DNA of 35,448 nucleotides. Source: Chryseobacterium gleum. GTDB taxonomy: Bacteria > Bacteroidota > Bacteroidia > Flavobacteriales_D > Sanyastnellaceae. Position numbers and translations under genes: made by a program. Shown piece by piece: positions 992 to 26,191 of this stretch; position 1 is the stretch's first letter; each line of letters begins with the position of its first letter. The stretch lies in contig CALQJP020000001.1 in the NCBI GenBank assembly GCA_943330925.2, positions 1 to 35,448 of the forward strand, given 5' to 3'. The notes beneath the pieces are model-generated. The model was given only the letters and a program-made list of their open reading frames with translations, did no database searches and had not been told where the DNA came from.

Positions 992-2110
992 TCAGTATTT
1001 CTTTAGCAGTTCGAGCGCTTCTTCCAGCTCTTCCGGGGTGTTTACATTTTCGAGCTTTTCGGGCTTGCTTGCTATTATCACCTTTGCTTCCGTTTGAATG
1101 AGCACTTTGCGCGGGCATGAATAACCCAGGCCGATGAACGACATGATCATGGGCATGGATTTCGGCTCCCAGATGGCAATGAGAGGCTCCGGAAATTGAT
1201 CGAACGGACTCTGAAATGACGTTGCGGTGTGAACGGTGGATCGATGGGCGAGGAGCTCCTCTAAAATTTCTCGGTCGAGAAAGGGAACGTCGCTGGCCAG
1301 CACGAGCCAAGCTGTGTCGGGTTCTGTCATGAATGCCGAAGCTATGCCACCGAGTGGACCAAGGTCGAGCATCCGGTCGGCGATGGTGCGAAACCCTTGC
1401 TCCTGGTAATATGCACTTTGCTCCTGACGGCAGGAAAGGGCGGGTTCCAATCCCATTTCCTCACACAAAGCATAGAGGTGCGCGAACTGAGGTTTGCCGT
1501 GATACGCAATGTGTGTTTTGTCTTTCCCCATGCGCACGCTTTTGCCACCCGACATGATGAGGGCTTTCACACGTGCAGGGGCCATAATTTGTTGACGCAA
1601 CAGAGGCAACAGGTCAACTATGTTTTGTTCGTTGAGTACAGGCACTTCTGCCCAGTGAGGCACAACTTCTTTCACGAATTCGGGAACTTGAAGGCAACGT
1701 TGTGTAGTAATGATGGCTATTACATGCGTTAGTTGTGATGCCCTTTTGCGAAGAGAAGCTTCTTTGTCGGGGTCGCACAAAATGATTTGATGCGCTGCTT
1801 CAAAGTGATTGCCGTTCACAACGACTAAATCTGCTTGTGAGAGTGCTATGTGCCGACTTACCATTTCCGGTGTTGCGCGCAGGTGGGTTGAAATGGACGA
1901 CTGATTGTCGGTCCATCGTTGAATCGAATCGGATGTTGTTTCAGGATGATGATTCGCATCGGCATACACCACAGAAGCCGGCATTAGCGCCTTGCAAAGG
2001 AGGTTGGCCCATTGACCAATGATGTCGCAATTCGTGCCGAGCAGGGCAAGCTCATTGCGAGCAAAATTCCCCAAGGAAGGCCTTTTCAGGTCGGCGTGTT
2101 TTTTATGCAT
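992..2110 (-). CDS. MobA-like NTP transferase (molybdenum cofactor guanylyl/cytidylyltransferase-like) with an N-terminal extension of about 165 aa that resembles MobB but lacks a P-loop
   Basis: The C-terminal half has MobA signatures LIMSGGKSVRMGKDK and LVLASDVPFLD. I trimmed the start to MHKKHADLK (ATG at complement of 2108-2110) because the track's longer ORF would run through moaC. It overlaps the moaC stop by 8 nt. Confidence 0.65.
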   Translation of the reverse strand: MHKKHADLKRPSLGNFARNELALLGTNCDIIGQWANLLCKALMPASVVYADANHHPETTSDSIQRWTDNQSSISTHLRATPEMVSRHIALSQADLVVVNGNHFEAAHQIILCDPDKEASLRKRASQLTHVIAIITTQRCLQVPEFVKEVVPHWAEVPVLNEQNIVDLLPLLRQQIMAPARVKALIMSGGKSVRMGKDKTHIAYHGKPQFAHLYALCEEMGLEPALSCRQEQSAYYQEQGFRTIADRMLDLGPLGGIASAFMTEPDTAWLVLASDVPFLDREILEELLAHRSTVHTATSFQSPFDQFPEPLIAIWEPKSMPMIMSFIGLGYSCPRKVLIQTEAKVIIASKPEKLENVNTPEELEEALELLKKY

Positions 2111-2582
2111 TGCGTTGGTAGTCGTTTTTGCCGCCCGATTTTTCCAGCAGTTGAATGGAGCTAATCGTAATGTCATGCGATAGAGCCTTGCACATGTCGT
2201 AGATGGTGAGCGCAGCAACAGAAACAGCCGTGAGGGCTTCCATTTCTACACCCGTTTTGCCGAAGGTGCGCACTTCGCTTTCAATTACTGCAGTGTGGTT
2301 GTCCAATTCAATCTTGATTTGAACCTTGTCGATCGGCAGGGCGTGACAAAGCGGAATGAGATCAGCTGTTTTTTTAGCGCCCATGATGCCCGCGAGAATG
2401 GCAGTTTGAAACACCGGACCTTTTGGGAGGTGCAATTCACGATCGACCAATCTGCTTGCGATGTCCTCACCGAGAAGCACGTGCGCCCGAGCTTTCGCAG
2501 TGCGCTGCGATGCAGTTTTTGAAGAAACATCCACCATGTTCGCTTGGTTGTCGGGGGAGAGGTGAGAGAATTCCGATTTCAT
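2103..2582 (-). CDS. moaC: Cyclic pyranopterin monophosphate synthase MoaC
   Basis: 159 aa with a family-typical sequence: ...VDVSSKTASQRTAKA..., LIPLCHALPIDKV, GKTGVEMEALTAVSVAALTIYDMCKA. Confidence 0.9.
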   Translation of the reverse strand: MKSEFSHLSPDNQANMVDVSSKTASQRTAKARAHVLLGEDIASRLVDRELHLPKGPVFQTAILAGIMGAKKTADLIPLCHALPIDKVQIKIELDNHTAVIESEVRTFGKTGVEMEALTAVSVAALTIYDMCKALSHDITISSIQLLEKSGGKNDYQRNA

Positions 2583-2597
2583 ACAGCGAAGTTAGGG

Positions 2598-2655
2598 TAA
2601 AGGTGCGAGGGACGAGGTGCGAGGTGCGAAGGACGAGGAGTGAGAAGAGAGCAGG
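2598..2655. repeat. G/A-rich short-unit direct repeats (GGTGCGAGG / GACGAGG words) in the moaC-OMP divergent spacer
   Basis: The sequence reads aggtgcgagggacgaggtgcgaggtgcgaaggacgaggagtgagaagagag. GGTGCGA occurs three times and GGACGAGG twice, with strong strand asymmetry. Confidence 0.6.
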
Positions 2656-12340: not shown

Positions 12341-12510
12341 CCCACGATTAAAATCGTGGGCTGTCGATTAAAATCGTGGGCTGTCGATTGAAAACGTGGG
12401 CTATCTAGTCGCGCATCCAATTCATATCGTCGATTAGCGGCCTGCAACAGCCCACCGCTTCAGCGGTGGGATTCAATAGAGGTGTGCTGATCAACGATTG
12501 AAATCGTGGG
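12341..12510. repeat. Second hairpin-repeat family: 20-bp units around CGATTRAAAWCGTGGG
   Basis: Three tandem copies lie at 12341-12360 (perfect palindrome CCCACGATT-AA-AATCGTGGG), 12361-12380 and 12381-12400. A fourth copy, TCAACGATTGAAATCGTGGG, is at 12491-12510. Confidence 0.8.
12451..12470 (-). terminator. Perfect 9-bp hairpin downstream of the acyltransferase gene
   Basis: CCCACCGCT-TC-AGCGGTGGG lies 20 nt past the stop of the minus-strand gene. No U-tract follows, so intrinsic-terminator function is uncertain. Confidence 0.3.
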
Positions 12511-13558
12511 CCGTTCGTTCGCGCTGAAGTTTCCCCTTCAACCATTTGCTAGCCTTCACCTCAGCCACGTAGTGAATTGCAGCCGCAAGAGCGATACTTG
12601 CAGGAAGAGCGATAAGTAATGAAGCCTGCCAAAGCGACATTTCATATTTCCACATAAAGTATGGAATGATGAGGTTGATGCTGAGGTATTGATGGGTGAG
12701 ATAAAGTGGATAGGATATTTTCCCGAAGAACAGCGTTACAGGATTGGCAATTCGCTCGAGTTTTCCGGAGACGAATAGAAAAAAGACACTGAAAAAAAGA
12801 GCCAGTACAACAAGGTATTCGGCCTGACTCATGTGTTTGCATGCCCTCCACGTATGCGGGAAAAGAGCCATTTGCGCAACGAATGCTATCGCGATTCCGG
12901 CGAAGAAAATTCTATTGTCGAGCGTACGTGTGTATTTGCCATAGAACACTATGCCGGCAAAGAATAAGGGGAAGTGGTAGAGCAAAGGGACTTTCATGAA
13001 AATCTCTTTTACCCAGTGAGTAGTGTCGACTGTAAATGCTGCTGCGGTCAGGGCAATGCAAATTGTGGCTCCGATGGCATGGATACGGCCCAGTTGACGG
13101 AAGAAGAAAAGGCATCCCATAAACACATAGAAAATCATCTCTACGATCATCGTCCAGTAAGGTCCTTCCAAATCAGGGATTCTCAGATAATACTGAAACA
13201 TAGTGAGGTTACCCAGCAATGCAACGGCCGGCCTTTCGATGGGGTATTTCTGTGTGTAGTGGAAATGGATGCTGATGATGGCAAACGAGAACAAGACCCC
13301 CATCCAGTAGGCGGGGTAGAGGCGCGTGAATCGATTGACAATGAATGTTCGCAGGCTATCGGCCTTCTGAAGACTCATGAAGATGACGAAGCCACTTATG
13401 ATGAAAAATAAATCGACGCCGGTTGTGCCGAAGCGAAAAACCTTATCATAGCCATCATGGTGCAGTGTAAAGTGAAAGAACACCACCGCCATTGCGGCAA
13501 TACCGCGAAGGGCATCGAGTGGCCGAAGCCGCGAGGTTGAGGTGTTGGATGCTGTCAT
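12491..13558 (-). CDS. Acyltransferase family 3 (OafA/YrhL-like membrane O-acyltransferase)
   Basis: MTASNTSTSRLRPLDALRGIAAMAVVFFHF... followed by about 10 hydrophobic segments. I chose the internal Met at 13558. The final codons TAHDFNR and the stop lie inside a repeat copy. Confidence 0.8.
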   Translation of the reverse strand: MTASNTSTSRLRPLDALRGIAAMAVVFFHFTLHHDGYDKVFRFGTTGVDLFFIISGFVIFMSLQKADSLRTFIVNRFTRLYPAYWMGVLFSFAIISIHFHYTQKYPIERPAVALLGNLTMFQYYLRIPDLEGPYWTMIVEMIFYVFMGCLFFFRQLGRIHAIGATICIALTAAAFTVDTTHWVKEIFMKVPLLYHFPLFFAGIVFYGKYTRTLDNRIFFAGIAIAFVAQMALFPHTWRACKHMSQAEYLVVLALFFSVFFLFVSGKLERIANPVTLFFGKISYPLYLTHQYLSINLIIPYFMWKYEMSLWQASLLIALPASIALAAAIHYVAEVKASKWLKGKLQRERTAHDFNR

Positions 13559-13573
13559 TGATTCGAAGACTTG

Positions 13574-13581
13574 CAAAACTA
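13574..13581 (-). promoter_or_regulatory. Candidate Bacteroidota -7 box (TAGTTTTG) for the acyltransferase gene
   Basis: Exact TAnnTTTG match on the minus strand, 15 nt upstream of the ATG at 13558. Confidence 0.4.
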
Positions 13582-13601
13582 CATCTTTGATTGCGTGCAA
13601 T

Positions 13602-13609
13602 TACCTTTG
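13602..13609 (+). promoter_or_regulatory. Candidate Bacteroidota -7 box (TACCTTTG) for the GT-C-like gene
   Basis: Exact TAnnTTTG match with only 4 nt between the motif and the ATG at 13614. Confidence 0.4.
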
Positions 13610-13613
13610 CCGC

Positions 13614-15044
13614 ATGAAAGCAATTTGGAGTCGACAGGCGCTGGCCGTTTTTCTTACCGCTGCGGTTTTTTACATGATCAATTTCGCAGTGAGCGAAGGG
13701 TTTAATGGCGGTGCAGATAGCATTACGCACTACCAAATTTCAAAGTATTCATGGGAGCATGATTATTTGTTGATCGACCAATGGGGCAAACCTGTATTTA
13801 CCATTCTGTTTTCTCCCATCGCACAACTGGGATTTAAAGCAGTGGTACTGGCCAACATTGCCCTTGTATTCTTGGGTGCGTTTTGGGCAATGGGCATTGC
13901 TGCGGATCTGCGAATGAAACGCCCCTGGCTGGTTGCGCTAGTCGTGTTGTGGTTGCCCGTAGTGGCGGGCAATAGCATTGCCGCACTCACCGAAATGATT
14001 TGCTCCCTGTTTTTGATTTATTACCTGCGCATGGCGCTGAAGGAGCGCTTCATACTGGGTGGCATTGTGTTGGGCTTTATGCCTTTCGCGCGCAGCGAGG
14101 GGTTTGTAATACTTGCGCTCGTTTTGCTCTTCTACGCTTTCACAGCGCGCTGGCGATACATGCCTTGGTTGCTGGTGGGTAGTTTGGTTTTCAATACGCT
14201 GGGGTATTTCATTACGGATAAGGCGCTCTGGATTTTCCAATCGAACCCCTACGTGAACACCACATTCGACATGTATGGCCACGGCACGTTTTACCATTTC
14301 TTCCAGTACGCTGTGCCGCTATTCGGAATTGCATATGTGCTCTGGCTGCTGCAGACGGTGCGCGAAGTTCCAATGGCTTTGCAGATTTGGAAAAGTCGCG
14401 ATTGGTCGTTGCACGACCAGGTGTGGGTTTGGTTGATAGCCGGCTCGGCCTGGGGCTATTTCCTGGCGCATACGGTATTGTGGTGGCAGGGCATGTGGGC
14501 ATCGCTGGGCTTGGGACGTGTCATGTTTGTGATTGCCGTGCCCATCGCGCTCATGTCGGTGAAGGGGTTGGAATGGTTGCTCGAACGGTTAACGGGTATG
14601 ATGCAGCGCGCTGTCCTTGCTACTGTAATAGTGCTTGTTATCGCAGGCCCCTTCGTAGTTCGGATGTTTTCATTCCAAGAGATTATGATATTTCCTGCTC
14701 TAGGTGAGGAGGAAAAGCAGAATGCACGCGCGGCAGAATACCTGCAAGCCAATTGCAACCCTGAAGAAACAAAGTTCTTTACGGCTCATCCCTATTTGAA
14801 TTTGTTGCTCGATGTGGATCCTTTTGATACAGGTAAAATCGAGAATCTGGATAGAGTTGGCAATGCAGTTCCTGGCGATGTTATTGTGTGGGACGGCCAC
14901 TTTGGTCCAAACGAGATGAAACTGCCTAAGGAGCAGCTGGAGGCCGATAGCTCATTGAAACTGCTCCAAGTAATACAGCCTGAGACGCTCTTCTATACCC
15001 TGAATAACTACCTCTACGAAATACGCATTTACCAAAAGCAGTAG
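13614..15044 (+). CDS. Polytopic membrane protein, GT-C-fold (ArnT/PMT-like) glycosyltransferase candidate
   Basis: 476 aa from [24 protein letters not shown], with about 11 hydrophobic segments and a soluble C-terminal domain of about 120 aa. It is adjacent to a polyprenyl-P-sugar-synthase-like GT2. The family assignment rests on architecture only. Confidence 0.5.
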
Positions 15045-15074: not shown

Positions 15075-15082
15075 TACATTTG
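15075..15082 (+). promoter_or_regulatory. Candidate -7 box (TACATTTG) upstream of the small GT2 gene
   Basis: Exact TAnnTTTG match, 21 nt upstream of the ATG at 15104. Confidence 0.35.
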
Positions 15083-15103
15083 CCGCCCCAAAACCTCACC
15101 CCG

Positions 15104-15820
15104 ATGAAAACGCTCTCTATTGTCATTCCTGCCTACAACGAAGGAAGAACCATCCACTTTATCCTGGATAAGGTGAAGGCCGTTAAGTTGATTGGCGGTC
15201 TGGAGAAGGAAGTCATTATTGTGAATGACTGCTCGAAAGACGACACAGAGGAGGCCATTAAGCGCTATCAGGTGGCCAATCCGGAAATGCCTATTCAGTA
15301 TTTCAAGCACGAGGTGAACCAAGGCAAGGGCGCTGCTCTTCACACCGGAATTCGCATTGCAACGGGTGATATGGTGATTATTCAAGATGCCGACCTGGAG
15401 TATGATCCGGAGGAATACAACATACTTGTGAAACCCATCCTGGATGGCTTTGCAGATGTCGTATACGGCAGCCGATTTATGGGCGGACGTCCGCACCGCA
15501 TTCTGTTTTTCTGGCATACCATCGGAAACAAGTTCCTCACGTTTTTGAGCAATGCCATGACCAATCTGAACCTCACCGACATGGAAACCTGCTACAAGGT
15601 TTTCAAGCGTGAGACCATTCAAAGTTTGCCACTGCGCGAGAAGCGTTTCGGTTTCGAGCCGGAGGTCACAGCGCGCATATCACGCATTTCCAAAATTCGC
15701 ATTTACGAGGTGGGTATTTCTTATTACGGCCGCACCTACGAAGAAGGTAAGAAGATCGGATGGAAAGATGGTTTCCGTGCGATTTACTGCATTGTGAAAT
15801 ACAATGTTTTTAGTAAATAG
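15104..15820 (+). CDS. Family-2 glycosyltransferase, polyprenyl-phosphate sugar synthase-like (DPM1/ArnC/GtrB type)
   Basis: [17 protein letters not shown]..., [11 protein letters not shown], the DxD motif in [11 protein letters not shown], and a size of about 238 aa. Confidence 0.8.
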
Positions 15821-15902: not shown

Positions 15903-18041
15903 TTACGATCGCGCGTGCTTCAAGGAATAGAACGTCACGAACGCATAGCCCAGCGCCAGCATGATGTGAAATGGAAGCAGTCCGAAATCGCGTGCACGCG
16001 GAGCCGCACCTCCATAACAGCCGTAACTTTTTTCGAGCGATGTGCCTTCTGCATTGCGAATCGTAGTGCCCGCAAGGCTTTGGTCATCCTTGGCTAAAAT
16101 ATTGTGAATGTCGCCTTTATTCATGAGCACAGTGTAGGGCTGATTAGCCGGTGATCCATTGAACAGTTCGGTGGTAGGCGTAACCGTTACAACAGTGCTG
16201 TCGGCAGTGGCCAGCAACGACACTTCGGTAATGGATTCGCTCTTGCTGAATCCGGTCGGAACCGAATAGGCAGTTTCAAACGCCACAGCCGGACGAATCA
16301 TTTGAGCTTCATCGACCGCTTTCGCATCCTTCAGCAACTCAAGTTTAACAGGCTCATTGCTCACCCAATGCATCGTGCCGACGAAGAAAGCGTTGTCGCT
16401 TGGAGTGGCAACCGAGTCAACCGGTAAATTGAGTGTGATAGGTTCGTTTGCTTTCCAGTTGACAGTTTTTTTCCAGCCCGTAAGCTTGGATTCTATGATG
16501 CCGCTTCCGGAGGTAGCGGAGGTAATACGCAATGCGTGACCGGGCTTACCCGGCTTGTCGTCGCCGCTGAAGTAGGTGAACCAAAACTCTTCGCCTGAAG
16601 TGGCTGAGCTGGCTGCCGACAGTTGTGTCAACGGTTGTTCACGTCGGCCTGTCATGGTGAATGCGTAGTAAATACCGAAACTGAAGTAAAGGAACAAGGT
16701 GAACTCCAACAGGGTGAGGGGCGATACTTTGATAGCCCTGTATTTCTTGTCTTTCCATGTGCCCGATGTTTTGCCGCTGATGGCGAATTTCGGCGTGCGA
16801 ACAAAGGAAGATTTTTTACCCGTGAATCCTTCGATTACTGCAACGGCATTGTGCAGTGAAAGCCCCATGCTCACCGATAAAAACGTCGGATATTCCCAAA
16901 GGAAGCTGACCATCTTTTTGAAGAAGTTTTTTTCGGGGCGTGAAATCCAGTAGAAAAAGCCAAGGAAAAAGAAGCTGACCATGAATACCGTTGCGATTTT
17001 GAAGAGGATTTCCAAATCGCCGTATGTGTTTTTGATAATCAGCATGGGTACACTCAGCAGGGAGGTTCCCAGAATACAGAGGAACACCACCGAGTTCATC
17101 AAGTGAAATGCTCCGTGCACCTTTTGACCGAAGGTGAGGTGTTTGGCATTCAAAACCTTCTTGAGGTTTTTCACCGTGCATTCTGCGGCGCCTTTGGTCC
17201 ATCGGAATTGTTGCGCTTTCAGGGCGTTCATCTCGGCGGGCAATTCGGATGGTGCGCCTATCATGGGCAAATAGACGAATTCCCATCCACGCAGTTGGGC
17301 GCGGTAGCTTAGGTCGAGATCTTCGGTGATGGTATCGCTTTCCCAACCGCCTGCATCGTAAATGGTGGCTTTGCGCCATACGCCCGCTGTACCATTGAAG
17401 TTGATGAAGTGAGCACCGTTGTTGCGGCCTACTTGCTCCACCGTGAAGTGTGCATCGAGTCCAAATGCTTGCAAGCGTGTGAGCAACGAATACTCTTCGT
17501 TTAAGTGTTCCCATTTAGTTTGCACTACACCGATTTTATCGCTGTGAAAGAAATGCGGAATGGTTTGCAATAGGAAGTCTTTGCGCGGAATAAAGTCGGC
17601 GTCGAAAATGGCCACAAATTCGCCTCGGCAGATGTCGAGACCGTATGCCAGAGCGCCTGCTTTGTATCCTTCGCGCTTAGGGCGTTTTACGTGTTTGATG
17701 TCGATACCCAGCTTTTGCATTTCTGCAATTTTTTTCGCAGCAACATCGAAACTTTCATCGGTGCTGTCATCGAGTACTTGTATCTCCAGTTTACCGGCAG
17801 GGTATTCAAACTGGCAAATGGCTTCTATCAGGCGCTCAACCACATAGAGTTCGTTGAAAACAGGCAGTTGCACGGTAACCACAGGCCACTGATCGTCGGC
17901 AAGCTGTGGTTTACGCTTCTGAAATTGTCTGAATTTGGTGTATTTGATAGCCAAATTGAGTTGCACCAAGCTGTAGATGAAAAGGAACATCAGGAAACAG
18001 CCGTATAGGAAGATGGCAACGATGGAAAGATGGTATAACAA
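15903..18041 (-). CDS. Processive family-2 glycosyltransferase (CslA/cellulose-synthase-like) with a soluble domain of about 220 aa inserted before the last TM helix
   Basis: Carries the D, DxD, TED and QxxRW motifs (LDDSTD, FDADF, ITEDLDLS, QQFRWTKG) and several TM helices. The insert spans roughly residues 465-684. The start appears to be TTG at the complement of 18039-18041, with no upstream in-frame ATG. Confidence 0.8.
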   Translation of the reverse strand: MLYHLSIVAIFLYGCFLMFLFIYSLVQLNLAIKYTKFRQFQKRKPQLADDQWPVVTVQLPVFNELYVVERLIEAICQFEYPAGKLEIQVLDDSTDESFDVAAKKIAEMQKLGIDIKHVKRPKREGYKAGALAYGLDICRGEFVAIFDADFIPRKDFLLQTIPHFFHSDKIGVVQTKWEHLNEEYSLLTRLQAFGLDAHFTVEQVGRNNGAHFINFNGTAGVWRKATIYDAGGWESDTITEDLDLSYRAQLRGWEFVYLPMIGAPSELPAEMNALKAQQFRWTKGAAECTVKNLKKVLNAKHLTFGQKVHGAFHLMNSVVFLCILGTSLLSVPMLIIKNTYGDLEILFKIATVFMVSFFFLGFFYWISRPEKNFFKKMVSFLWEYPTFLSVSMGLSLHNAVAVIEGFTGKKSSFVRTPKFAISGKTSGTWKDKKYRAIKVSPLTLLEFTLFLYFSFGIYYAFTMTGRREQPLTQLSAASSATSGEEFWFTYFSGDDKPGKPGHALRITSATSGSGIIESKLTGWKKTVNWKANEPITLNLPVDSVATPSDNAFFVGTMHWVSNEPVKLELLKDAKAVDEAQMIRPAVAFETAYSVPTGFSKSESITEVSLLATADSTVVTVTPTTELFNGSPANQPYTVLMNKGDIHNILAKDDQSLAGTTIRNAEGTSLEKSYGCYGGAAPRARDFGLLPFHIMLALGYAFVTFYSLKHARS

Positions 18042-22048: not shown

Positions 22049-24499
22049 ATGAATCGCCTGCTTGCAATCTCAGCTTTAATCTTTTTATGTGGAAAAGCAT
22101 ATGCTCAACCTGCGCAGCGTGCATTCCATGGGTGCCATCATGCGCACAACAAAAGCCGCCGTGTGGAGCCTTTGTCGGAGCGGGAATTGCAGGTCATGAA
22201 TGAGAGCATTGCCCGCAGCGATACGTTCGATATCTTGAATTACACCATCAACCTGGATGTTTCCAATTACGCATCGTACAGCATTGCTGCAGCGACCACC
22301 ATTCATTTCGCTGCATTGATGGACGGACTTCAATCCATTCGCTTCGATTTATACGATTTAACAGTCGACTCGGTGTATTGGGCGGAAGCCCCTGCATCGT
22401 TTTCATACGATGGAAATATTCTAACCGTGCAAGCACCCGTCGAAATGAATACTGCAGACAGTGCGTCGGTTGTCGTTTATTACCGCGGTCAGCCTTATCA
22501 AGATCCGGTTTGGGGAGGTTTTTATTTTCAGGCCAGTTATATCTACAACCTCGGAATTGGATTAAGCACCATTCCGCCGAATTTCGGCAGAGTATGGTAT
22601 CCGTGCTTCGATTCATTCGTGGAGCGAGCTACCTACGAATACCATGTGAAGAGCGCCGGTGGTCTTCGTGCCCACTGTCAGGGCACTTTCTTGGGTGAAA
22701 CGGTAGTGGCAGGCGACACGATTATTCGATCATTTGCTTTCAACCAACCCATACCAACTCACTTGAGCGCCATTGCCGTTGCTGCATACCAGGATGTGGA
22801 TTATGTGCACGCCGGTGCGTTTGGGGATGTACCTGTTCGCCTAACGGCCAAAGCTTCGAATATCGGTGCAATGCAAAATGTGATGGTCAATGTGGGTGCT
22901 GCAATCGATGCATTGCAATACTGGTATGGACCTTATATCTGGGAGCGCGTCGGTTATGTGCTCACAACGGATGGAGCACTCGAAATTCCAACCAACATAG
23001 CTTACCCTCAGTTTATGGTCAACGAGTCGGTCATCAGCAATAACAACTTGCTGGCACACGAGCTGGGGCACCATTGGTGGGGTGATGTGGTAACGCCGCA
23101 CATCCACAACGACATGTGGCTGAAGGAAGGCCCTGCGGAATATAGCTCGCATCTATTGACCGAGTGGCTCTCCGGTGAAGCAGATTTTGTGGATCAGGTG
23201 AAGACCAATCACCTCGACGTCTTGCGCAACGCACACATCGACGACAATGGCTTTCAACCGATGTCGCCAATGCCCGATCCTGTTATCTATGGCACCCACA
23301 CCTATTACAAGGGAGCATCAGTTATGCATAATTTAAGAGCGTATCTGGGTGATGAGCTTTTCCGGGCGGCAATGACAGAGGTGCAGGCCAACCATGTTTT
23401 TGTAGATGTAACACCGGAGCAGTTTCGTGATTTCCTGGAGCAGGAATCGGGAGTTGATTTAGATGATTTTTTTGATGATCAGATTTTTCAGCCCGGGTTC
23501 AGCGTCTTCGTTGTCGACTCATTTTCTGTTGTGCCCGAAGGAAATCAATTTTTGGTGAGTGTGCACCTTCAGCAAAAGCTGCGTGAATGCCCGCAGTTCT
23601 ATCAGCACGTACCCATCGATGTAACGTTTATCTCTGCCGACAACCAGCGAGAGGAAGTGCAAATCGATGCAAGTGGGCAGTTTACGAACGTTCAGTTGCC
23701 TTGCGGTTTTCAGCCGGCGATGGTGGTGTTGAATGGCCACAACCACTTGAACCAGGCGCGCATGGATCATGAGTTTATGGTATACAGCGATCAGTCGCTC
23801 TACCCGGTATTGCCGTATGTAGATTTTCGTTTTTCACGCGAGAATGTGGTTGACTCTTCGTTGGTGCGAATTGAGCATATTTGGGCAGCACCCGATCAGC
23901 AGCCGCTGGGCAACGGCGTGTTTGAAATTTCGAATACACACTATTACTTGGTGGATGGTTTGTGGGATGCAAACGATTTATACAGCGGACGCATCTATTA
24001 CAACGGTTCGCAGGAAACGGATTTAGATTATACACTCTACAGCAGCGGCGAACAGCAAGCCATTTTGCTTTATCGCAGTTCTTCAGCTGATGCATGGGAG
24101 ATTTATCCTGACTTCACATTGGGCACTGGTTCATTGGCGAACGGCGATGGTCATTTTGTGATTGATACATTGCGCCGCGGGCAGTATGCCTTTGCCAACG
24201 GAGATATTTTCGCTGGCCTGGAGGCTCCGCAGTATCAAGATGCTATTGCATTGAATTGCTATCCGACACCGGCCAATCAACAGATGGATGTAGCGGGTTT
24301 TGCTGAAGGCGAAGGAGTCGCTTTGTTTGATGTGTATGCAATGAACGGACGACTCGTGCAGCGATCGTCGGCCCGATTGAACGGTGCTTTCACGAAGCGT
24401 ATCGATACCTCTTCGTTGGGTTCAGGAAACTACATTTTGCAAGTAACACGTGCGAGTGGCGATGTGCTCGGCGTGAAGCAATTTGCAGTTGCTCGTTGA
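22049..24499 (+). CDS. M1-family zinc metallopeptidase (aminopeptidase N-like) with a T9SS type A C-terminal sorting domain
   Basis: Signal peptide MNRLLAISALIFLCGKAYAQ, the HEXXH motif in HELGHHWWGD, and the downstream Zn ligand in WLKEGPAEY. The C-terminal ~80 aa (NCYPTPANQQMDV...GNYILQVT...) fits the Por secretion tail. Confidence 0.85.
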   Translation: MNRLLAISALIFLCGKAYAQPAQRAFHGCHHAHNKSRRVEPLSERELQVMNESIARSDTFDILNYTINLDVSNYASYSIAAATTIHFAALMDGLQSIRFDLYDLTVDSVYWAEAPASFSYDGNILTVQAPVEMNTADSASVVVYYRGQPYQDPVWGGFYFQASYIYNLGIGLSTIPPNFGRVWYPCFDSFVERATYEYHVKSAGGLRAHCQGTFLGETVVAGDTIIRSFAFNQPIPTHLSAIAVAAYQDVDYVHAGAFGDVPVRLTAKASNIGAMQNVMVNVGAAIDALQYWYGPYIWERVGYVLTTDGALEIPTNIAYPQFMVNESVISNNNLLAHELGHHWWGDVVTPHIHNDMWLKEGPAEYSSHLLTEWLSGEADFVDQVKTNHLDVLRNAHIDDNGFQPMSPMPDPVIYGTHTYYKGASVMHNLRAYLGDELFRAAMTEVQANHVFVDVTPEQFRDFLEQESGVDLDDFFDDQIFQPGFSVFVVDSFSVVPEGNQFLVSVHLQQKLRECPQFYQHVPIDVTFISADNQREEVQIDASGQFTNVQLPCGFQPAMVVLNGHNHLNQARMDHEFMVYSDQSLYPVLPYVDFRFSRENVVDSSLVRIEHIWAAPDQQPLGNGVFEISNTHYYLVDGLWDANDLYSGRIYYNGSQETDLDYTLYSSGEQQAILLYRSSSADAWEIYPDFTLGTGSLANGDGHFVIDTLRRGQYAFANGDIFAGLEAPQYQDAIALNCYPTPANQQMDVAGFAEGEGVALFDVYAMNGRLVQRSSARLNGAFTKRIDTSSLGSGNYILQVTRASGDVLGVKQFAVAR

Positions 24500-26191
24500 T
24501 TAGCGAATAACCTGGAAGTGCCCGGCACGCGTGCCCTCTTGCACTCCGCCGCATTCGATGCGGTAGTAAATTTCGTAGTAGTAAACACCGTCGGCAAAAC
24601 CATCGACGTTCCAATAGCGGCCGCTGCCTGTGCTGCTGTCGAATGCCAGCGCACCCCAACGATTGAAAATCTTCAGCTCATAAGTGTCCATTACGGAAGG
24701 CAAAACCAACGAGCGGTTGCTGTTCAAGTAGGGCATCCAAACATCGTTGTCGGAGTCGCCATTGGGAGTAATGATGTTTGGAAAGAGAATGTCAGATAAG
24801 TCGATGTAGCCGGCCTCGGCGTCATCTATAAAGATCTCCGTGCTTGCGCTGCAGCCCGACGTTTCGTCGGTTGCAATAACTCGATACGTTCCTGCAGCAA
24901 TTACGGTCGGGTCCAAGGAGGTGTAGGAGAGGGGCTCCCAGTTGCCGTTGGATGCGAAATACTCCCAGCTGACTAGACTGTTTTGTTGCGGAGTGACTTC
25001 TACGCCGACGATTTCTACATTCGGGTTCGAACATGAAATGGAGTCTTGCAAGGGAATCGACAAGAATGCGATGTCGTGATTGGGTATTTCTATGGTTGTC
25101 TGAACGCCGCAATTTTCCTGGTCGTCTACCATGAGTTGATGAATGCCTGGCGTAAGGCCTGCAGCTGTATAGCCGGGAAGGGGCGTTGCATCCAAAATGA
25201 CAGAATAGGGTTGCGATCCGCCTGTGATATTGATTATCTCTATGGCGCCATCGATTCCGTTACAAGCGTATGCAATGGATGTGTTGTAGCTAATAGGCTC
25301 GTTGAAAATCAAATCGAAAGTTGCAGCAAGGGCGGTATTACCGCAGGGGTCTTCCACGTTACCACTTACATCTTGAATGGAAAGCGTATAGATGCCGGCT
25401 TGCAGCACCGATTCACTGAGGTTGAGGAGAAAGAGGTCTTCATACGTCGCATTCGGATTTTCGGCCACTACCGTGGCAACGGTAAATACTCCGCCCGGTC
25501 CGCTGAGATTGAAATCAGATGCTTCAACCGTGCTGTTGACGATGAGTTCTGAGAATATAATTTCAATCTGGTTGTTGGTGCATGCCGTTACCGCGGCAGA
25601 TATTTCAGGTTGCTGATCATCAAACAATGTTGCGGTGCTTTCATTGAAATCGATGGAATATCCATCCGGGCTATTCGACCAGTTCATTACAACCAGCGCG
25701 AACGTTTGTCCCACTTGTGCATTGAGGTTAGCATTGAAGGCAGGTCCGTTGAGGTCACCGGGGCCATTGCTGTTGCCCGTGCCTCCGTTGCTTGAAGAGA
25801 TACCGGTTGGTCCGTTGGTAGCGAAGCTTCCATAGGAGTTGCAACTAACCTCCGGCGAAGAGCCATCTTGTGCATTGATGCCGTCGCATCCTCCATTGGT
25901 TATTTCGAAAAGGCCCCAGTCATAATCGTCGAGTTCATTGTTGGGAGTTAAAACGAAGCCAAGCTCACCTGCTTGCTGCACCGTGAAGGTGTACCACAAG
26001 CTCATGGTCTCAGTACCGTTGTTGCATGCACCGGTATATTCCAATACATTTCCGGTGCCGGGCGGTGAGGTTTCTTCGCTGTAAATGCCACCGCAAAGGG
26101 GAATTGCGCCGTCGCAATCACCTGTGCTGTCTTGTGCAATGAGTAAATGCGATAGACACAGGATGCATGCAATAAGTACAGGAGTTTTCAT
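24500..26191 (-). CDS. Gliding-motility-associated / T9SS type B C-terminal domain protein (putative cell-surface adhesin)
   Basis: Signal peptide MKTPVLIACILCLSHLLIAQ, a Cys-rich N-terminal domain (CDGAIPLCGG...DDYDWGLFEI), Ig-like repeats, and the C-terminal FPNIITPNGDSDNDVW...KIFNRWGALAF...DGVYYYEIYY. Confidence 0.85.
   Translation of the reverse strand: MKTPVLIACILCLSHLLIAQDSTGDCDGAIPLCGGIYSEETSPPGTGNVLEYTGACNNGTETMSLWYTFTVQQAGELGFVLTPNNELDDYDWGLFEITNGGCDGINAQDGSSPEVSCNSYGSFATNGPTGISSSNGGTGNSNGPGDLNGPAFNANLNAQVGQTFALVVMNWSNSPDGYSIDFNESTATLFDDQQPEISAAVTACTNNQIEIIFSELIVNSTVEASDFNLSGPGGVFTVATVVAENPNATYEDLFLLNLSESVLQAGIYTLSIQDVSGNVEDPCGNTALAATFDLIFNEPISYNTSIAYACNGIDGAIEIINITGGSQPYSVILDATPLPGYTAAGLTPGIHQLMVDDQENCGVQTTIEIPNHDIAFLSIPLQDSISCSNPNVEIVGVEVTPQQNSLVSWEYFASNGNWEPLSYTSLDPTVIAAGTYRVIATDETSGCSASTEIFIDDAEAGYIDLSDILFPNIITPNGDSDNDVWMPYLNSNRSLVLPSVMDTYELKIFNRWGALAFDSSTGSGRYWNVDGFADGVYYYEIYYRIECGGVQEGTRAGHFQVIR

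Follow-up and report, generated by a model that had tools for sequence, protein, structure and literature searches.

The stretch of DNA analyzed here (35,448 nucleotides, referred to below as the window) carries on its minus strand, at 15903..18041, a complete gene without internal stops for a synthase of 712 residues, in which a segment related to the heads of surface adhesins is spliced between the last two transmembrane (TM) helices. An earlier note, made from the letters of the window alone, had described the protein as a processive glycosyltransferase of family 2 (GT2) with a TM bundle and had singled out this segment as an adhesin-head-like module. The architecture is real, conserved, under selection, and confined to one clade of uncultured freshwater Flavobacteriales. 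It is apparently an undescribed combination of a known enzyme class with a known domain family, and a topologically unusual one; no paper was found in the literature on the insert architecture or on the Flavobacteriales synthase family represented in the window. With mechanism weighed in, the explanation favored overall, held with a confidence a little short of even, is that of an adhesin-derived module at the exit side of a synthase of the BcsA/HAS type.

The synthase and its insert

The catalytic part of the protein is matched by GT2 families of Pfam over residues 55-364 (E 4e-21 to 2e-15). Its DDS (residues 90-95, 17757-17774), DAD (residues 146-150, 17592-17606) and TED (residues 239-243, 17313-17327) motifs lie upstream of QQFRW (residues 277-281, 17199..17213), all on the minus strand, and the four motifs are invariant in 17 aligned relatives of the window synthase (alignment A1). 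When the sequences of the PDB were searched, BcsA was matched by the synthase at E 1e-24 and by the profile of its family at 2.6e-31. The full-length AlphaFold2 (AF2) model, built from 73 sequences, reached a mean predicted local distance difference test score (pLDDT) of 87 and a predicted template modeling score (pTM) of 0.75, and Foldseek matched it to BcsA (1.6e-22), the archaeal PcManGT (1.3e-15), HAS (3e-14), and CesA (2e-10), as well as to chitin synthases. Motifs, Pfam families, and matches by sequence and by fold all agree with the earlier description of a processive GT2 synthase with a TM bundle, and the motifs quoted at that time are found in the translation of 712 residues where they had been placed. 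Judged by motif and fold, the core belongs to the membrane-embedded GT2 synthases of the processive type (BcsA/HAS/CHS/CesA type). The best NCBIfam matches are CelA (cellulose synthase) and PgaC (poly-N-acetylglucosamine synthase); since these and all other equivalog matches fall far below their cut-offs, the protein is left without a named orthologue.

Directly ahead of the penultimate TM helix lies a strongly basic cytoplasmic loop of low pLDDT (residues 408-440, ten lysines plus arginines), which harbors the motif FVRTPKF (16785..16805, minus strand); F413, R415, T416, P417, K418, and F419 are invariant among 73 synthase relatives. This motif resembles, without being identical to, the FxVTxK gating-loop motif of BcsA and CesA, and their equivalence is suggested by order and motif, no alignment with BcsA reaching the region. 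As in the BcsA-BcsB complex (PDB 4HG6/4P00; E. coli 9B8V), whose BcsA is likewise a membrane GT2 that combines a TM bundle with the D, DxD, TED, and QxxRW motifs, the catalytic domain is embedded among TM helices, but the window synthase has one N-terminal TM helix instead of the four of BcsA, and neither a PilZ nor another regulatory domain was detected in it by Pfam and NCBIfam scans.

The insert comprises residues 465-684, which correspond exactly, as the earlier note had it, to nucleotides 15990..16649 of the minus strand. It is flanked by the penultimate TM helix PLTLLEFTLFLYFSFGIYYAFTM (residues 441-463, 16653..16721, minus strand; helix 441-462 in the model), which is TM7 of BcsA by position, and by the last TM helix FGLLPFHIMLALGYAFVTFYSL (residues 686-707, 15921..15986, minus strand; helix 689-708 in the model), which is followed by the cytoplasmic tail KHARS; alignment A1 and the AF2 model concur in placing the segment between these two helices, the helix borders being set from the model and from charges. 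Within the insert and on the same strand, an N-terminal linker with the motif GR-E-PL-Q (residues 465-481, 16599..16649) precedes module A (residues 482-578, 16308..16598), which was delimited by hhalign against adhesin heads and lies outside the Pfam model, and module B (residues 579-679, 16005..16307), which corresponds to the start of the Pfam IgGFc_binding domain by both Pfam and hhalign. The motifs GEEFWFTYF (residues 483-491), ALRITSATSGSG (residues 503-514), VSNEPV (residues 560-565), SLLATADSTVVTVTP (residues 608-622), PYTVLMNKGDIHNI (residues 635-648), and LAGTTI (residues 656-661) can be read along the translated insert. Among the 13 inserts of alignment A2, the G, R, E, and L of the N-terminal linker are invariant and its P and Q nearly so, and this linker is not conserved in adhesin heads. 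The C-terminal linker, CY-G-AP-x-x-D, is conserved and is also specific to the synthase version of the domain.

The impression from the sequence that the segment is rich in β structure was borne out by confident all-β predictions, with pLDDT of about 74-93 for the insert portion of the full-length model and, for the insert modeled alone, a pLDDT of 87.7, a pTM of 0.85, and 17 strands essentially free of helix. A search of the PDB with the insert profile returned chance matches to antibodies only, BcsB not being among them, and Foldseek of the insert against the PDB gave at best E 6.5e-4, with TM-scores below 0.3 (bicupins and an SGBP), again with no BcsB.

Two further observations concern the insert itself. 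Cys675 (16017-16019, minus strand) is its sole cysteine; located in the last β strand (GCYGG), it is invariant in 26 of 26 insert sequences, and the corresponding position of adhesin heads is occupied by Val in most cases. This cysteine may serve in a disulfide between molecules or may just lie in the interior of the domain. In P0029, a fragment of 426 residues, the insert is 194 residues long, as against 220 in P0130; 26 residues around the end of module A are gone and the rest is identical, a difference due to a deletion in nature or to faulty assembly.

The topology was assigned from counts of lysines plus arginines, the positive-inside rule, and the homologous architecture. These counts amount to 6 after TM1 (residues 33-54), 5 before TM2 (residues 288-308), 1 in the loop between TM2 and TM3 (residues 337-343), 4 after TM3 (residues 367-376), 10 in the loop 408-440, and 2 in the C-terminal tail of 5 residues. 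As the segments 367-376 and 408-440 are both strongly basic, the amphipathic segment between them (residues 377-407) leaves the parity of membrane crossings unchanged. With the GT domain in the cytoplasm, this parity would make the helix 441-463 run from the inside to the outside and the helix 686-707 from the outside to the inside, and we infer that the insert faces the periplasm, in a loop that matches that between TM7 and TM8 of BcsA by position. The statements made here on the identity and the topology of the synthase and its insert are regarded as very nearly certain.

Relation of the insert to adhesin heads

The profile PF17517 (IgGFc_binding), whose gathering cut-off is 25.6 bits, matched the insert alone with 37.7 bits (E 1.9e-9) and the full protein with 35.0 bits. 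The match lies inside module B (residues 579-663, 16053-16307, minus strand) and is partial, as it covers positions 2-89 of the 297 of the profile, the complete domain being absent from the synthase. A profile built from the 13 insert sequences of alignment A2 and searched against 1.84 billion representative proteins matched 1,979 of them at E<=1e-3 and 466 at E<=1e-10. In nearly all of the best 150 of these 1,979, positions of about 10-215 of the insert were aligned with residues of about 20-235 of proteins that are 500-7000 residues long; in adhesins the domain starts at residue 19 (median), right after the signal peptide. The adhesins that were examined carry PF17517 at about residues 125-430, PKD/Ig repeats, and a CHU_C or Por_Secre_tail sorting domain of the type IX secretion system (T9SS), and two loci with insert-profile matches that were recovered from genomes encode classic gliding-type adhesins. 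Comparison by hhalign of the insert family with the N-terminal halves of 147 adhesins yielded a probability of 99.95% and E 3e-38 over 208 columns (columns 6-216). Signature residues common to the insert and the adhesin heads include G-x-[DE]-F-W, G-W, P76, H94, P120, and Y128, followed by E142, A-x-x-D-x-T, P158, N-x-G, and G194; the first four of these belong to module A.

Pairwise identity between the insert and adhesin heads is 25-29%, and P0134 is the best match outside the synthases. A word-indexed search with the single sequence of the insert retrieved fragments of the same synthase only; reaching the adhesins took the exhaustive profile search. Among the best 150 representative matches, a TM helix after the domain was found in the synthase family only. 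The synthase is not itself a T9SS adhesin, since it has no C-terminal sorting domain and its head modules lie between TM helices.

The adhesin head is about 400 residues long, and the Pfam model begins about 110 residues into it. By profile comparison, the insert corresponds to the first half of such a head, made of modules A and B (about 200 of about 400 residues). Within the C-terminal half of these heads, module B is repeated (hhalign probability 96.9%, E 1.7e-10), which indicates that the head is modular and that the insert ends at a module boundary. Whereas adhesin heads continue with the B-like repeat for about 200 residues and then with PKD/Ig repeats and the T9SS C-terminal domain, the insert consists of A and B only, is flanked by TM helices, and has linkers of its own (GR-E-PL-Q and CY-G-AP) and an invariant Cys. 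The resemblance to a head of the IgGFc_binding type that had been proposed by eye was thus upheld, as the Pfam threshold was passed and profile search and hhalign concur. That assignment needs to be narrowed, as only the first half of the head is present and the Pfam model extends over module B alone.

PF17517 leaves out the conserved module A, of about 110 residues, of the adhesin heads themselves (P0134-P0281; L013 9923-13051; L014 9890-12709). In the adhesin P0138, a sub-threshold match to DPBB_1 falls within the C-terminal half of the head.

Where the other half of the head might be found, and from where the first half might have come, was addressed with hidden Markov models (HMMs). The HMM of the missing C-terminal half, which scored strongly on two control adhesins, matched none of the open reading frames (ORFs) of the window and of all synthase loci, and a split domain completed by a neighboring gene was rejected on this ground. 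The HMM of the insert, run on all ORFs of the window and of the loci fetched by then, matched synthases and two unrelated adhesins only; with no donor ORF nearby, recent capture from a neighboring gene was likewise rejected. A close donor lineage was rejected as identifiable, the best candidate, P0134, being just 25-29% identical, a level at which no recent donor can be named.

Distribution and selection

The insert is carried by 16 full-length clusters (ENA, NCBI, JGI, and Logan) of 695-759 residues, which are 69-97% identical and all have PF17517. The earlier note had mentioned relatives of about 480-500 residues without the insert, and the search confirmed relatives of about 490-515 residues, with up to 85% core identity and without PF17517. 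Carriers and insert-less relatives are collinear in alignment A1 except between ...YAFxFTG and DFGLLPFH, where the former have 218-222 residues and the latter 0-8. For instance, insert-less proteins of about 490 residues annotated as “cellulose synthase family protein” (P0017, P0018, and P0024) are 80-85% identical to the window protein in the core and have a loop of 0-8 residues in place of its 220. Among the matches listed from the 1.84 billion representative proteins, the synthase architecture was represented by the full-length cluster P0007 and two short fragments only. In a scan of one genome per GTDB species, 12 carrier loci were found in species representatives, all of them metagenome-assembled genomes (MAGs) of freshwater Flavobacteriales (Lake Mendota and similar). 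The record names of the MAGs that contain L001, L008, and L011, two “Chryseobacterium gleum” and one “uncultured Comamonadaceae”, are doubtful and suggest mislabeling or mis-binning.

In a neighbor-joining tree computed from the core only, the carriers group into a single clade, whose sister is the insert-less P0017 and which lies within a set of insert-less sequences. A single gain of the insert would be the simplest reading of this tree, which is not decisive, gain followed by loss being also possible.

Ratios of nonsynonymous to synonymous substitution (dN/dS) were computed by the Nei-Gojobori method from codon alignments of ten loci together with the window; in the unsaturated comparisons, the insert gave 0.04-0.09 and the core 0.006-0.02. 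The insert takes several-fold more amino acid change than the core and is clearly constrained by purifying selection. That the segment might result from an assembly chimera or a frameshift fusion, or be a non-functional insertion or decaying remnant, was worth considering as the gene is so far known solely from metagenome-derived assemblies. This explanation is effectively refuted, as the same in-frame architecture was met in four data sources (16 clusters in all) and in the MAGs of 12 species, the insert is 218-222 residues long, its dN/dS is low, both flanking TM helices are conserved, and the fold prediction is confident; independent assemblies and purifying selection exclude the chimera or frameshift against which the earlier note had asked for a check.

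An insert that evolves faster than the core and is yet constrained is what is often seen for ligand-binding domains. It is, moreover, immediately preceded by the TM helix downstream of the invariant FVRTPKF loop, in a protein devoid of PilZ. These features would suit a periplasmic sensor or regulator of a ligand from the envelope or the environment, whose ligand-bound state would be signaled through the preceding TM helix to the gating-loop-like segment so as to turn synthesis on or off, the insert being a periplasmic substitute for the cytoplasmic PilZ domain of BcsA, which the synthase family lacks. Such a function is considered unlikely, as no sensor-type fold or family was matched, the homologues of the insert are structural adhesin heads and not receptors, and the insert-less relatives apparently cope without control of this kind.

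Gene neighborhood and possible roles of the insert

Next to the synthase gene in the window lie, convergent with it on the plus strand, genes for a small GT2 of 246 residues (15080-15820) that resembles polyprenol-phosphate sugar synthases and for a multi-pass membrane protein of 500 residues to which Pfam and NCBIfam scans assigned no family (13542-15044), and then a gene for an AT3 (Acyl_transf_3) membrane acyltransferase on the minus strand (12491..13600; Pfam E 5.8e-32). The best NCBIfam matches of the small GT2, AglJ, PgfS, PpgS, and ArnC, are all below cut-off. A GT-C identity was rejected for the 500-residue protein, which had no Pfam match, a single sub-threshold NCBIfam match, and no BLAST similarity to the MptA_B-family protein of insert-less operons. 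The mechanical GTG start gives its gene an overlap of 59 nucleotides with the divergent AT3 gene, at the 5′ end of the latter (13542-13613), and an in-frame ATG 24 codons downstream (13614) is more likely to be its start. A scan of promoters and terminators remained at or below the expectation from shuffled sequence.

In carriers, a variable cassette is located between the synthase gene and genes for OMP decarboxylase and ETF. Cassettes of type A, composed of the small GT2, the 500-residue protein, and AT3, are present in the window and in L002, L003, and L006-L009; L004 has a variant with a different AT3, and in L001 the small GT2 and the 500-residue protein are followed by the end of the contig. 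Cassettes of type B, found in L016 and L010, consist of a membrane protein of 504 residues whose gene overlaps the synthase stop, an AlgX-family protein, and an MBOAT protein. An acyltransferase is adjacent in 10 of the 11 carrier loci with a readable downstream flank (8 AT3, 2 MBOAT+AlgX), and no adjacent polysaccharide acyltransferase was found in the 8 insert-less loci examined. Two unrelated acyltransferase systems are found at the same position in different carrier subclades; a link of AT3 to the insert would be one of gene neighborhood. In L007, the genes for the synthase and the small GT2 are separated by an extra one (1041-2630, minus strand) for a secreted GDSL/SGNH protein of 529 residues (Lipase_GDSL_2, E 4.5e-10), a further acyl-handling gene in the cassette hotspot of carriers.

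The pair formed by the small GT2 and the 500-residue protein is conserved in carrier loci. A small GT2 of 227-231 residues, 29% identical to that of the window, also lies immediately upstream of the synthase, tightly packed and on the same strand, in 3 of the 8 insert-less loci (L019 6286-8488, L020 6194-9814, and L024 5301-8841); two of these, L020 and L024, have in addition a GT-C of the MptA_B/GT87 family directly downstream of the synthase. The idea that small GT2 and membrane protein form a carrier-specific cassette was rejected, since small GT2 and GT-C genes flank insert-less relatives as well; the association with a small GT2 is thus a trait of the whole family. The arrangement in the insert-less loci hints that the product of the family is decorated in the periplasm from a polyprenol-phosphate sugar.

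In BcsB, periplasmic β-rich carbohydrate-binding domains sit over the exit of the cellulose channel. A role of this kind is favored for the insert because of its position, the analogy with BcsB, and the neighborhood pattern; the mechanism taken by itself is held slightly more tentatively than the explanation as a whole. The catalytic domain would polymerize sugar on the cytoplasmic side, the TM bundle would thread the growing chain outward, and the insert, at the periplasmic face beside the exit, would be a built-in accessory comparable in role to the carbohydrate-binding domains of BcsB. It might retain or steer the chain as it emerges and offer it to periplasmic modifying enzymes, for which the neighboring O-acyltransferases (AT3, or MBOAT+AlgX, sometimes with an SGNH protein) would be the clearest candidates; alternatively, within the same role, it might dock partner enzymes. 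In its most specific form, the proposal would have the insert seize the glycan as it is made and pass it on to O-acyltransferases or other modifiers, so that one polypeptide would be the functional analogue of BcsA plus BcsB; in this form it is doubtful.

Several points weigh against a module that receives the chain. As no solved structure resembles the insert, glycan binding is without support from the fold, and to our knowledge no ligand is known for any domain of the IgGFc_binding/FCGBP-N1 type. The position of the insert relative to the mouth of the channel is one that we infer from topology alone. As to the product of the enzyme, no characterized member of the synthase family was found. 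There are few independent lineages (perhaps 3-4) behind the association with acyltransferases, and the synthase gene of the window is convergent with the cassette genes and does not belong to the same operon. In L011, the most divergent carrier, no acyltransferase was detected by tblastn in the stretch read when AT3, MBOAT, and AlgX served as queries. Strict monophyly of the carriers was recovered in 50 of 100 bootstraps.

To these points is added a competing view of the enzyme, according to which it would be a lipid-glycosylating GT2 (MgdA-like or GT21-like) and the insert would handle a glycolipid on the outer leaflet. No gene for an outer-membrane exporter is evident in the window locus, insert-less operons pair the synthase gene with a GT2 like polyprenol-phosphate sugar synthases and with a GT-C, and Glyco_transf_21 figures among precomputed Pfam lists. 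The size and TM layout also resemble those of cyanobacterial MgdA, in which N- and C-terminal TM helices flank a cytoplasmic GT domain (PMC3916417). The best matches by sequence and by fold are nevertheless the channel-forming BcsA, HAS, and CesA, and QQFRW and FVRTPKF are invariant. MBOAT and AlgX proteins act on periplasmic polysaccharides, as in the O-acetylation of alginate and of cellulose, and the presence of members of these families beside carriers also argues against a lipid acceptor. This view is judged to be distinctly unlikely.

On the other side of the synthase, the window has in common with the insert-less P0017 an LptF/G-family permease, two GT4 proteins, an M1-family peptidase with Por_Secre_tail, a T9SS cargo (22049-24499, plus strand), and a CHU_C (T9SS) protein of 563 residues (24500-26191, minus strand), located 6.5 kb from the synthase; the synteny with P0017 is identical on this side, and OMP decarboxylase and ETF genes lie on the other. 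The genes for the peptidase and the CHU_C protein abut without a gap, and this synteny is kept in the insert-less relative L015. The earlier note had stressed a T9SS adhesin gene 6.5 kb away. A T9SS gene is indeed present at that distance, but its product has no head domain according to the insert HMM, and as the gene is equally placed beside an insert-less relative, its proximity is not linked to the insert.

This bears on a further possibility, namely that the half-head serves for anchoring or localization by contacting adhesin heads, peptidoglycan, or an outer-membrane partner, so that the synthase would be positioned, or its product tethered, where surface structures are assembled, T9SS secretion proceeds, or gliding takes place. 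Outside the synthases, the domain family is almost confined to the tips of T9SS adhesins, and the unpaired Cys675 is invariant and specific to the synthase version. Furthermore, in L011 (10728-18214, plus strand) the stop of the synthase gene and the start of a gene for a CHU_C protein of 771 residues overlap, and a second gene, for a CHU_C protein of 1709 residues, comes next. Neither head domain nor C-terminal half was found in these two CHU_C proteins, and none in ORFs of the window or related loci that might pair with the half-head; in addition, T9SS genes are equally near the synthase of the insert-less relative. Anchoring is accordingly given little weight, on a par with the sensor.

The favored role at the chain exit would set the synthase apart from known systems. 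Synthase-dependent polysaccharide systems normally use separate periplasmic partners to receive the chain (BcsB, Alg44/AlgX, or PgaB/D). BcsB forms a subunit apart (in some cases fused C-terminally), has a TM anchor of its own, and shows unrelated folds, whereas the periplasmic domain of the window synthase is spliced between the last two TM helices and is adhesin-head-derived; the likeness between the two lies in the proposed role only. Similarly, in O-acylation systems such as AlgI/AlgJ/AlgX for alginate, Wss for acetylated cellulose, and OpgC for periplasmic glucans, MBOAT+AlgX or AT3 are found beside a synthase-type GT2 as in the carriers, a likeness drawn from gene neighborhood alone, but the glycan-binding module is borne by the acetyltransferase or by a separate protein, and we know of no O-acylation system that uses a domain built into the synthase.

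A synthase with a receiving module at its exit side would provide a compact natural experiment on how synthesis is coupled to downstream handling, and an adhesin-derived domain in that place would surprise specialists, although the ecological reach is limited, the carrier clade being narrow and uncultured. The IgGFc_binding family is large and includes the heads of thousands of T9SS/gliding adhesins of Bacteroidota as well as the N1 domain of the human mucus protein FCGBP. With the domain fixed beside a defined source of glycan, a ligand hypothesis for the head family becomes directly testable, and glycan binding by the insert, if true, would be the first functional assignment for the IgGFc_binding/FCGBP-N1 family. 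IgG is not bound by the N1 domain of human FCGBP, the role of which is called unclear in the literature (PMC8267560, PMC11796319). A Foldseek search of BFVD with the insert gave nothing convincing; the sole viral model with a sizable superposition is Q6XLX4 (FirrV-1-C4 of Feldmannia irregularis virus a; probability 1.00, TMq 0.45, root-mean-square deviation 6.1 over 216 columns, E 5e-3), and this protein of a brown-alga virus may hold a related module.

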